A stretch of DNA of 63,092 nt, filler included, from Globobulimina sp. (lineage: Eukaryota), in NCBI GenBank assembly GCA_003354225.1. It is 43 parts of 43 records of this genome, joined end to end, with 100 filler letters (N's around TTAATTAATTAA, not from the genome) between each part and the next. Parts side by side here need not be neighbours in the genome. Positions count along the whole stretch, not along the records: positions 48,506 to 49,874 come from PIVH01017817.1; 42 more parts are not named here. One strand, 5' to 3'. The notes beneath the pieces were generated by a model. The model searched no databases and was not told the DNA's origin. It saw only the letters and a list, made by a program, of their open reading frames with translations. The position numbers and the translations under genes were made by a program. Shown one piece after another: positions 1,948 to 50,894 of this stretch (its first letter is position 1; every line of letters starts with the position of its first letter).

Positions 1948-2942
1948 GATCGAGATCAATTCAATAATATTGTGATATGTCTACCTAAATAATTCACATA
2001 AAATCTTCAAAATCATGTGAAACGGTTTGTTAATTTTGATCGAAACTGGTTTGGAAAAGTTATAGAAATACTTTGTAACAGTTACAAAGAATTCTGTTAC
2101 ATCTACATAAGATTTAGTACATTTGACGGCAGAAAACTTTGCAGATATTACAGATATGTTTTTCTTTCCACAAACTACATAGAACTTTGTTTCTTAAACA
2201 AATTGTTTTCTATTACTTATTATTTCCGAAAATTTTGTTGTTGCAATGAAATCCATTATAGATATATTAAAATTAGAAACCTTTATATTTAAAGCAACAA
2301 ATTAAAAATCGATATAGTTATGATGGTAGATTTGTGAGTGGAATTTATAGTTTGAGCTAAATATATATGGTTGTTCTGGGTTGTGTTGTGTGATATGTAA
2401 TCGAAAAGTTACTATTTAGTTTACTTTTATTGGAATATTTGTTGAAATAGATATAGACATAATATATTACAGTTACATTTCAAACAAAAAACTTACGAAA
2501 TAGATCATACATATTACATTTGTACATGACCGTTATACAGTCAGTCCGGGATATTGGGACATATATGGTAACGTTTCCATATATAGTAACACATGCAACA
2601 GTTACCATATGTGGTAACAGTTAAAATAGAAAGTTTTCAATTTGCTTGTCGTAAACAATAAAATGTATTTGCTTTACTGGCATAGAATGGTGTATAGATA
2701 AGTTGCCACGTGGGAGTTTGCTGATTGAAGTAACTTGGCTGATTGGCTTGTTGTGGAGGGATGACCGGGTAAGGGAACTGGGTTTGTGGCATGCCGAATG
2801 GATGTGTGGTTGATTGGTAGTAGGGCTGGGGGTTTGGAAATCNNNNNNNNNNNNNNNNNNNNNNNNNNNNNNNNNNNNNNNNNNNNTTAATTAATTAANN
2901 NNNNNNNNNNNNNNNNNNNNNNNNNNNNNNNNNNNNNNNNNN

Positions 2943-3848
2943 TTGTAAATCTGGCGGTGACTGAGGCTGAAATTGTTCATTTATAATAAATCCAATATTT
3001 TGTATTGCGGTCAATAATTTTTTTTTATATTTTTCAGTTAATACAAAATCAATTTTTATCACAGATTTATTATTTTGAGCCACTGCATCTCGCACATTTT
3101 GAATATTGTCGTTTAATATTTTTTTGTTGTTCGCAAATTGTGCTTTTGTTTCTTTTCCGATATTAATGATTTCTTCTTTTCTTTGCTGTCTTTGATCATT
3201 TCCCATCGAAGCAATTTTATCATTGCATTCATTTAATTTTTGAGCTAAATATGCTCGCTCTGACTGCATTATTTTTGAACTTTCTCTCAATATTTGATTT
3301 TCTTTCGTTTCTAATTCCAATTCTTCTTTTTTCTCAATTTTATTTAACTCATTTTCTACTTTTTCTTGCCGAAAAATTATTTTTTCTTTGATTTCATTGA
3401 ATGAATTCTTGCTTTTTTCTTTCGTATTTTTAATTTGTTTTAATTTTTCTCTTTTAATTTTCTGCAAACTTTGAGGTAATTCTTTGTTTAATGAATTTAT
3501 ATCAACTTCAAACGCATCAATTTCTTTTAAATGCGATGTTATTTCATCGATTACATTGTGTTCTTCCTCCGCTACGATTACATGTTTTGGTTTTTGTGGC
3601 AATGATGATAGGCTTTGAATGGCACAGACTACGAATGGAGTGGATAAAGGTTGGGATGCTGTTAAATCTGATATTAATTTAAAAAGTGAGGGGGAACTCA
3701 TTGATATCGTATCTCTGTTCGTCATGCCATGCTTTATCAGGAATGGTTTGGCCTGTTCGAGATGGTTTTGTTCGATCCATTTATCAAAATCAAAACCATC
3801 ATCTTCACCCTGCATTTTTCCATCAACGGTTTCTTGCAGACTTGCCAT
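2943..3848 (-). CDS. Coiled-coil protein with SAM-like N-terminal segment (3' truncated)
   Basis: FDKWIEQNHLEQAKPFLIKHGM followed by a long E/K-rich heptad region. Confidence 0.6.
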
Positions 3849-48505: not shown

Positions 48506-49874
48506 CTATATTTGTAAAGGTCCCATCCTTCAACACTTTTGTTTAACTTTGAAAAAAAACTTCAGTTTAATTTAAAAAAACACAAACCTAACTACACAGA
48601 ATAAGCACAAATATTTCCGAGTGATACCACAGCAGGAAATCGAATGCAAAGTGCAACAGAATTATGGCAACAGGCACGCAAAGGGAACAACGACAAACTA
48701 TAACGGCACAATCGGACATTGGAAAATCTATGCAGCAATGCAACGGAAAACAAGCATGGATTTCAGCGAAACAAACATAAGGAATTTCCTTGCCTGGAAA
48801 CAGCTGACAAACGGCATTGGATGGTCCGCAATGCACGGACACAAATACGCGGTGAGAGACTTTGCAAAATCCAACGGACATTATATCGACGTATCTGCCA
48901 AAGCAATGCCGAACTTAAACGATGATATTATCGGTGAAAAGAGAAGAAAACCATCGAGCGGTGGATCCAAACCGGTCGACATGAACATCATCAAACAATT
49001 CTATGCCATCATTGACGATGACGAGCAATACGATGAGAGAGACACATTGATTTGGAAGGCACTCCTCTCGATCGGACATGACGCCATAAAGCGAGGATCC
49101 GAGATAACATATGACGATGTCATGGAACAAGGACTTCAATTAAATAAGTTCGAATTCCAACACAATTTGGACATCGATACCTTGGAAACAAACATTGGAT
49201 GCAAAGCAAATATTGCACATACAACAGAACAAAAGGCAAAACATATCAATTCGGAGCTAAACTAACTGCTATATTGATATGTAACTGCTACAGCAACGTC
49301 TGTGGACTGCATGCCTTAATATCTCTGATTGCGTTCAAAATAAGTCAGAACGACAGCAACCTCAATCTACTCTTGCAAATGACAAACGGCAAATCCGTCA
49401 ACAAATATATCCTTGGCCAAGGCTTCAGAAAGTTTTCGAAGCACTGCGGCTTCAAAAAAGGCGAAATAACCCCACACGGGGCAAGAAAAGGCGGTGCCCA
49501 ACAAGCAATCAAGGACGAATTGCCGGCAACGCATATTCTTAAACAAGCAGATTGGAGAACCCTCAATTCATTGAATCGATATAACAGTAACGTACACGAC
49601 CAAACCAGAGTCAACGTACTACTGAAAATAAACAAAAAAGCAAAGAAAAGATTCAAAAAGAAGCAAAGAAAGAACAGAAAACGAACATTGTAAACACTTC
49701 GTAACTGTAATATTTAAGCAACGATTGGATACTATAACATCAAGCAAATCACACACTATATTTGTAAAGGTCCCATCCTTCAACACTTTTGTTTAACTTT
49801 GAAAAAAAACTTCAGTTTAATTTAAAAAAACACAAACCTAACTACACAGAATAAGCACAAATATTTCCGAGTGA
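48506..49874 (+). mobile_element. 1250-bp cyclic (circular or tandem) unit encoding a solo tyrosine recombinase
   Basis: The first 119 bp (48506-48624) are identical to the last 119 bp (49756-49874); the YR fills most of the unit. Confidence 0.8.
48644..49693 (+). CDS. Tyrosine recombinase (DIRS/Ngaro/Crypton-like), frameshifted near 49187 and probably near 48677
   Basis: Catalytic set R (AIKRGSEI), K (KGKTYQFG), HxxR (TPHGARKGGA), W (ADWR), Y (LNRY); core-binding-like N-terminus; basic tail. Confidence 0.85.
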
Positions 49875-50894
49875 NNNNNNNNNNNNNNNNNNNNNNNNNN
49901 NNNNNNNNNNNNNNNNNNTTAATTAATTAANNNNNNNNNNNNNNNNNNNNNNNNNNNNNNNNNNNNNNNNNNNNATATTTGCATCTTCTTGCTCTTGGGT
50001 TACGGTAACTTCTTGCTCTTGGGTTATGGTAACAAATGGGAGAAGAAAGATAACCACAATAATAGGGTACAACATGATGGTCACACAAACGATCGACAAC
50101 AAACACAAAATGACACGCTCTTCTTCCGGTAAATATTTGCATATTACGGTCAAGAGTTATTGCACCTAAGATACATATTGAAAGGAAGAGTGAAGAATCT
50201 CCTTTCATGCACTTCGACAATCAGTGAGTAATCTAAGAACGGGGCAGGAACGGACCATGACGAAATATGGTAATAAAACTAATTTTACGAAATAAACCTA
50301 CTAAAATTATGTATGACATATAGTCAAAACCGGAGCCGTTTAGCCCAGAAACTTAACATCTCATTTCTTAGAATCTGCACCCTTGATTACTTAAGACAAA
50401 TCGAGGGTCTGCAGATTTTTAAAAAAGCAATAGTCCCGACCTAAATCGACCATGGGAAACACGAATCCGGTGTCCGTTTTCAGCTTTAGCAACTCTTCTT
50501 CTCAGGGCAGTCCATTACATATGGCAAGTTGGCCAAATTTGCATAAAGTTTTATGCAAATTTCTGAAAAATATAATCGCTCATAGCTACCCAACCAGTTG
50601 GACTTCAGAGGTCGGTTATGTCTCATTTTGTAACCCATCACATGTACTTCCTCATACAATGTTTACTTTTTCCATTATCATTAGTTTTGCAAACCGGATA
50701 TGCAAATTAGTGTGGGAACATGCTTTTTTTGGCCACGGGTCATTTTAGGAAATCGATCAGTACTCTGTTAAAAGTTGCTGTCCCAGGCCAATTTTTTGAT
50801 AATGTTGTTCCAAACAGTATCCCACATGTTTGGAGGCCAGAAATCGTGCATATACGGGGGGGTCCCGGGGTGGTTTTTGACCCCCGTAGCTCAC

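Follow-up and report, generated by a model that had tools for sequence, protein, structure and literature searches.

A self-closing 1250-bp tyrosine recombinase unit, probably a recent derivative of a Ngaro-like retrotransposon

Introduction

How does a contig come to close on itself after 1250 bp and to carry a tyrosine recombinase (YR) as its one recognisable gene? This question is raised by the contig at positions 48506-49874 (+ strand) of the stretch of DNA analysed here, which measures 63,092 bases and is referred to as the window. Retroelements that encode a YR are rare, and little is known of how they replicate. A circular DNA form of these elements has been proposed since the 1980s.

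Known YR elements differ in gene content and in their repeats. According to excerpts of PMC4157794 and PMC8547959, Ngaro elements carry gag, reverse transcriptase (RT)/RNase H and then the YR, without a methyltransferase, and their repeats are split direct repeats of the form A1-[ORFs]-B1A2B2. For the YRs of CryptonA elements, a match to DUF3504 is the criterion given in the portion of PMC3212892 that was available.

Results

The window joins 43 unrelated contigs of 1368-1371 bp each by N...TTAATTAATTAA...N spacers, and the GC content of these contigs ranges from 27% to 45%. The window therefore resembles a slice, sorted by length, of a metagenome assembly, and the neighbours of contig 48506-49874 are uninformative on the present finding. 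Rfam gave no match anywhere in the 63,092-base window.

The first 119 nt of the 1369-bp contig (48506-48624) and its last 119 nt (49756-49874) are 100% identical at an offset of 1250 nt (direct-repeat family D2, strand not assigned). Since the same 119 nt stand at both ends, the unit is 1250 bp long and the contig consists of this unit plus a repeat of its own start, with the cycle-closing junction at 49755|49756. A scripted comparison found a terminal overlap in one of the 43 contigs of the window, namely this one. The assembler MEGAHIT prints a looped path with its last k-mer equal to the first, and 119 is a step in its default list of k values. The original prediction had taken the identical ends to define a 1250-bp unit and to be an assembler-printed cycle; the former is confirmed by the alignment and the latter is supported.

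The non-coding part of the unit amounts to only 185 nt. The spacer shows no significant DNA fold (z 0.46; 134 of 200 shuffles fold as well), and the repeats found in it are a weak 16-nt palindrome and an imperfect 24-nt direct repeat. Besides the N spacers and this palindrome, the contig contains no inverted repeats.

The unit carries a single recognisable gene, the YR, on the + strand, next to which only short antisense or overlapping frames are found. The gene is read in two frames. The first (48576-49265) encodes the N-terminal half and the second (49148-49693, with the stop codon TAA at 49691-49693) the C-terminal catalytic half. The closest relative of the YR is P0001, a protein of 355 aa encoded by the metagenome contig PJEL010015822.1 (5623 bp, hereafter L001). 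By BLASTP, P0001 is 63% identical to the first frame, with homology to about position 49186, and 67% identical to the second. P0001 runs colinearly through both frames; the gene of the unit is therefore one base short near 49186/49187, as is seen in the DNA alignment with L001 as well. All catalytic positions of the tyrosine recombinase superfamily (PF00589) are present and in order, R...K...HxxR...W...Y. They lie in the boxes KRGSE (49089-49103) in the first frame and TKGKT (49229-49243), HGARKGG (49475-49495), ADWR (49547-49558) and LNRY (49571-49582) in the second, all on the + strand. The Pfam profile Phage_integrase (PF00589) scored 19.9 bits on the C-terminal half (E 6.5e-4), below its gathering cut-off of 27.1, and the full-length P0001 scored 27.8 bits, just over it. 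A basic C-terminal tail (49634-49684, +) is found in P0001, P0004 and P0008, too. Within the coding region of this lysine-rich tail, there is an imperfect 23-nt tandem duplication (49625-49670, repeat family D5).

Three other readings of the two frames and of the stop codons were considered. An intron joining the frames (GT...AG, 49148-49227, 80 nt) was rejected, since P0001 reads colinearly through the interval. For a programmed -1 frameshift, no slippery heptamer of the form X XXY YYZ was seen by eye in 49172-49190, and the relative is unshifted there. An alternative genetic code, considered as all three stops in the spacer are TAA, was dropped; the genes of L001 end in TAA, TAG and TGA, and the standard code was therefore assumed.

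The codon aligned to residue 1 of P0001 is ATA in the unit and TTG in L001, so that an ATG start is missing in both. The sequence TACACAG|AAT is conserved just upstream of the YR in unit and L001, at a codon boundary. Together with the lack of an ATG near the YR start in the unit (48576-48740) and in L001 (924-1260), this suggests expression by splicing or by non-AUG initiation. With its frame break and without an ATG, the unit has no intact YR gene of the kind expected of an autonomous Crypton copy. In the original prediction, about 1050 bp were held to encode a YR with R, K, HxxR, W, Y and a basic tail, next to a spacer devoid of ATG and of other genes. Residues and tail are indeed present, and the spacer, at 177 nt from the stop to a GTG at 48621, is free of ATG and of any other gene. 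It had missed the division of the gene between two frames and the lack of an ATG start; its observations of the terminal overlap, the YR and the spacer are borne out.

Relatives of this YR are few. A HMMER search with the C-terminal half against 1.84 billion representatives returned only 33 proteins at E<=1e-3, 11 of them at 1e-10 and one at 1e-30. A word-index search with the N-terminal half gave one protein among 26 candidates, which was P0001. Alignment A1 comprised 16 of the 33 proteins, that is the longer ones among the top 24 and three fragments; used in the word-index search, it retrieved seven proteins of 3009 candidates and no named protein. Residues R157, E160, K206, C220, C227, H285, R288 and W311 are invariant in these 16 sequences. 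The catalytic tyrosine, Y320, is conserved in most of the 16 and invariant in a second alignment of six sequences (A2).

Between the K box and HxxR lies a Cys-x-Cys...Cys-x2-His cluster (49280-49312, +; Cys-x-Cys...Cys-x2-His/Cys in the family, P0001 residues 220-230). Its Cys columns show little or no variation among the 16 members of alignment A1, which suggests a putative metal site. Against solved structures, the family profile matched best the Cre recombinase of phage P1 (E 4e-10), with which it aligned through HxxR, W and Y. Cre is nevertheless a distant relative: the similarity is confined to the catalytic C-terminus and a weak N-terminal match, and the YR family of the unit has the Cys/His cluster and the basic tail in addition.

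Alignment A2 was used to scan metagenome contigs, viral contigs and prokaryote genomes. In the metagenome contigs 178 stretches matched, which yielded one locus, L001; the 67 stretches matched in viral contigs and the 50 in prokaryote genomes yielded no confirmed relative. In a language-model Atlas, the neighbours of P0001 are mostly eukaryotic (Oomycota, Basidiomycota, a cnidarian ALOG/Phage-integrase cluster and Rhodophyta), and one is labelled bacterial. Taken together, the lack of confirmed prokaryotic or viral relatives in these scans and the mostly eukaryotic neighbours favour a eukaryotic origin. NCBIfam gave only XerA and RNase H matches, far under the cut-off. DUF3504 was not among the Pfam matches at E up to 1, neither for the two halves of the unit's YR nor for P0001.

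L001, too, has 119 identical nt at its ends, the same overlap length as in the 1250-bp unit, and forms a loop of 5504 bp. Its genes lie all on one strand and comprise the YR, an ORF of 194 aa, a gag-like ORF of 396 aa and an ORF of 635 codons for RT/RNase H, which spans the contig ends. The YR frame is open from 924, with a called start TTG at 990 and the first ATG at codon 91. The 194-aa ORF (2502-3086) matches no known family, and the gag-like ORF has a Cys/His knuckle and no family match over the cut-off. In the back half of the 635-codon ORF, the RNase H-like Pfam family RVT_3 was matched (E 1.6e-5, 25.2 bits against a cut-off of 21.6). The front half contains a YVDD motif. All nine PDB matches of this region are retroviral RTs, weak ones (E 0.2-0.7), and among its Atlas matches RVT_1 makes up the largest set (16 of 30). 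Given such weak sequence scores, we call it a putative RT. No Pfam family was found in the approximately 75 aa that remain after the RNase H match, hence no methyltransferase domain or other further domain, as in Ngaro elements. Like these, L001 has no long inverted repeats, the longest being 30 nt at 70%. Inverted terminal repeats with an internal complementary region, as in DIRS1, are absent from L001 and from contig 48506-49874. By gene content and order, L001 thus appears to have the Ngaro arrangement; split repeats, the internal pair of which lies downstream of the YR in Ngaro elements, would be collapsed in a loop contig.

By blastn, positions 61-1094 of the unit align to L001 924-1966 at 70.5%, and nothing else rises above noise. 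In tblastn searches of contig 48506-49874, neither the RT/RNase H ORF nor the gag-like and extra ORFs of L001 found a match. The contig is therefore without RT, RNase H or a gag-like ORF, two hallmarks of Ngaro elements being absent, and its YR stands as sole gene without RT, as in Cryptons.

The similarity extends beyond the annotated YR start. A stretch at 48566-48620 (+), open from 48576 and devoid of ATG, aligns to L001 924-986 with a score that none of 1000 shuffles reached; in a control with the wrong flank, 255 of 1000 reached the score. The gaps in this alignment come in multiples of three and both frames are open. The stretch probably extends the coding sequence at the N-terminal end; neither in the unit nor in L001 does it contain an ATG. 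Downstream, just past the YR stop, the 13-nt motif AGCAACGATTGGA (49717-49729, +) recurs identically at L001 2063-2075, where 19 of 1000 shuffles reached the score. The region of this motif may be part of a recombination or end-joining site. In L001, the motif is duplicated in diverged form 68 nt further on (2062-2159, repeat family D2). A looser alignment extends the downstream similarity to the ...CACACA of the unit at 49755. L001 contains no significant match to the first 60 nt of the unit (48506-48565). All in all, the unit corresponds to approximately L001 865-2110 closed on itself, with the closure where the downstream similarity ends.

Selection on the YR was assessed over 345 aligned codons of unit and L001, for which pN was 0.19 and pS 0.80 (the latter saturated), both halves being alike. 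At 83 sites conserved in six outgroups, which were the closest long relatives out of 38 proteins, both YRs keep 71; the unit differs at five and P0001 at seven (binomial p 0.77). Relative to the YR of the full element, the YR of the unit as judged from these comparisons is not decayed beyond its frame break. It follows that the frame break is recent and the loss of the other genes probably recent, or else that the YR remained in use until not long ago.

The unit was then sought in sequencing runs, the evidence consisting of Logan contigs (k=31), not of reads. Run X1 contains 0.99 of the sampled words of the unit. Two other runs of the same sample (X2 and X3) contain next to none, and no Logan record of theirs was placed on it. 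No RNA run is among those listed as containing the unit's words. Nine records were placed in X1, the depths of which are crude according to the tool's own warning. Record 5 (935 nt, depth 12.7) covers 48821-49755, stopping exactly at the last base of the unit. Record 1 (370 nt, depth 18.3) places 340 nt on 48506-48845. Both match with 0 mismatches and 0 gaps, and together they span all 1250 nt. The frame break, across which record 5 runs without a gap, is thus not peculiar to one assembler, though the reads are probably shared by both assemblies.

On exactly 49726-49755 (strand not assigned) the depth is in excess by 23.4, which is the sum of 18.3 and about 5.1, and no record runs past either end of the sequence on which the records were placed. 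Since the excess contains the 18.3 of record 1, the remaining 30 nt of that record would lie across the junction (k-1 letters). The residual of about 5.1 would be one short record of depth about 5, which forms a side branch, and three records would share this 30-mer. The side branch of the k=31 graph falls inside the region of AGCAACGATTGGA (AGCAACGAT|TGGA).

The loop is also broken at 48816-48850. This 35-mer is identical to L001 1182-1216 and to Logan record 3 and is the only exact stretch of at least 20 nt common to unit and L001, which explains the break. The loose end of record 2 is identical to L001 1122-1151, so that L001 is present in X1 as well, at a depth of about 10. Of the four records at least 99% alike to the unit, each falls inside the loop or on the 30-mer branch, and no parent element with an identical YR was seen among the X1 Logan records. 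Records 4, 6, 7 and 8 are pieces of no fewer than three other YR genes of the family, which are 85-95% alike where short stretches are conserved and have depths between 2.8 and 26.6. A diverse family of such elements thus appears to reside in the host.

Both assemblers open the loop at 49755|48506. As a shared break point has a chance of about 1 in 1250, this hints that 49755|48506 is a real structural boundary. The depth figures of the listed records in turn hint at a head-to-tail array of 2.3 units at about 6-fold single-copy depth, or at an extra partial copy.

Discussion

On balance, we hold the unit to be a recent, YR-only and non-autonomous derivative of a Ngaro-like YR retrotransposon of a eukaryote in this metagenome, present as head-to-tail copies or circles and dependent on a helper. 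On either side of its YR, the unit matches the sequence that flanks the YR of the full element, which argues for a deletion derivative and not for an independent Crypton-like lineage. A full element with gag-like, RT/RNase H and YR genes would have lost everything except the YR, about 55-115 nt upstream and about 60 nt downstream, and the two remaining ends would have been joined at 49755|48506. Present at several-fold depth as head-to-tail copies, be it a tandem array or DNA circles, the product would be printed by an assembler as a loop. The recombinase would have been under purifying selection until recently and would now carry the one-base frame break. Movement or resolution of the unit would probably depend on full-length relatives in the same genome, which would provide the YR (and RT) in trans.

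Some observations speak against this reading. The YR is undecayed but for one break, which also fits a YR in use until very recently. The downstream homology consists of the 13-mer (p about 0.02) and the looser alignment, positions 48506-48565 have no significant match in L001, the sequence scores for the RT of L001 are weak, and the X1 records contain no parent with the same YR. A plain circle, moreover, would not predict the unequal depths of the records (18.3 and 12.7, with a third of about 5 on 49726-49755), crude as these depths are.

Precedents for such a loss exist. In Cafeteria burkhardae, internally deleted Ngaro variants and solo AB repeats coexist with full copies, as described in excerpts of PMC8547959. 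The Cafeteria variants, as far as these excerpts go, lost only ORF1 (about 2 kb) and kept the RT, whereas the present unit is a YR alone and closes on itself. With the Ngaro elements of the DIRS order in general, the unit shares the kind of YR; the element that contains its nearest relative has the Ngaro gene order of gag-like, RT/RNase H and YR. It differs from them in having no gag and no RT/RNase H and in measuring 1.25 kb, compared to about 5-7 kb; their split direct repeats would be hidden in the collapsed loop contig of the unit. The original prediction had seen in this locus a cycle that holds only a YR, of the DIRS/Ngaro kind, and these parts of its interpretation are supported, the last by the gag-RT/RNase H-YR element in which the nearest relative sits. 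It had further proposed a minimal solo-YR transposon. This implies autonomy and is not supported, given the frameshifted gene without ATG and the flanks shared with the YR of a full element.

What the loop itself means is a separate matter. A clean loop at k=119 has three possible sources, which contigs alone do not separate: a DNA circle, a head-to-tail array, or dispersed copies with direct repeats of at least 119 nt and unassembled flanks. The choice between circle and tandem copies offered by the original prediction is retained here; the third source had been left out of it. Tandem repeats derived from retrotransposons are a known phenomenon, and tandem copies would result if a YR integrated the element into a resident copy. 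DIRS-1 inserts preferentially into existing copies, according to part of the text of PMC7192593.

We regard the third source as rather unlikely. It assumes copies that each have a direct terminal repeat of at least 119 nt, LTR-like or split, with flanks too diverse or too shallow to assemble, so that a loop arises with neither circle nor array. The split repeats of Ngaro elements (A1-[ORFs]-B1A2B2 in the excerpts of PMC8547959 and PMC4157794) would suit this explanation, and so would the greater depth of record 1, which holds the junction and the first 340 nt, the side branch at 49726-49755 and the break of both assemblers at 49755|48506. A copy of the Ngaro form, however, has a full-depth A2-B2 joint. 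Such a joint should break the loop up into several contigs, whereas at k=119 a clean loop is seen. By this graph logic, the clean loops of L001 and of the unit lean to circles or tandem copies. Besides, 185 non-coding nt leave little room for repeats of at least 119 nt, and the depth ratio of records 1 and 5 is 1.44, not 2.

An autonomous minimal Crypton-like DNA element, the own YR of which excises and reintegrates a 1.25-kb circle or tandem unit, with the frame break bypassed or confined to one allele, is improbable. The YR is the sole gene, retains all catalytic residues and, under strong purifying selection, shows no excess decay compared to P0001. The shift needed is -1, the direction often used by retroelements, and the lack of an ATG, being common to the full-length relative, is not a defect particular to the unit. 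Yet both assemblies contain the frameshifted form only, 49172-49190 has no slippery heptamer by eye and is unshifted in the relative, and the flanks match those of a YR within a retroelement. The DUF3504 match expected of CryptonA YRs by the excerpted text of PMC3212892 is lacking. The same excerpts describe likenesses: Cryptons are YR-only, an excised DNA circle has been proposed for them, and non-autonomous derivatives are known. The YR of the unit, in contrast, is closest to a retroelement YR and its gene is broken. Compared to Cryptons, the unit also seems smaller. Direct repeats of 4-6 bp mark the termini of integrated Crypton copies; no copy of the unit integrated between flanks was seen.

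We likewise give little credence to the boldest version, in which the loops of 5504 bp and 1250 bp are real double-stranded DNA circles and the small circle is a retroelement that sheds its RT and becomes a self-contained, Crypton-like module of excision and integration. The circle postulated for DIRS-1 in the available part of PMC7192593 is comparable in that it closes on itself at the junction of its ends and the YR is thought to integrate it, often into resident copies. The same text, however, has the extrachromosomal DIRS-1 cDNA as mostly linear and single-stranded, with a junction that could not be amplified, and our unit is known as a graph cycle, not as a molecule. Were both loops circles, they would show, at the level of sequence, the circular form long postulated for YR retroelements, and shedding of the RT would be the reverse of the usual scenario, in which a Crypton and an LTR element gave rise to DIRS and Ngaro.

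An artefact of assembly or library (a loop falsely closed through a chance repeat, chimeric reads or an amplified fragment) is very improbable: the unit is found in one run only, two others from that sample being nearly devoid of its words, and the second assembly, probably from the same reads, is not independent data, but an exact 119-nt overlap requires junction-spanning reads, an unbranched k=31 unitig crosses 48624/48625 (the 119-mer is therefore not a bounded repeat), the gene is well conserved with sensible flanks, and L001 has the same topology.

A family with a self-closing full element and a YR-only unit in one sample is suited to the study of circles versus head-to-tail arrays. It bears as well on the location of the recombination site and on the shedding of RT with persistence as a recombinase cassette. 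Should the unit be no more than a deletion copy that died recently within a tandem array, it would represent ordinary transposon decay. Our literature search, which was not narrowly aimed, returned no YR-only loop derived from a YR retroelement; absence from print is not claimed.

Two minor observations concern the rest of the window. Many of the 43 contigs are one open frame from end to end, as in prokaryotic DNA. The contig that follows 48506-49874 starts with two tandem 24-nt copies (49985-50032; CTTCTTGCTCTTGGGTTACGGTAA, 96% alike), which are unrelated to the YR unit.
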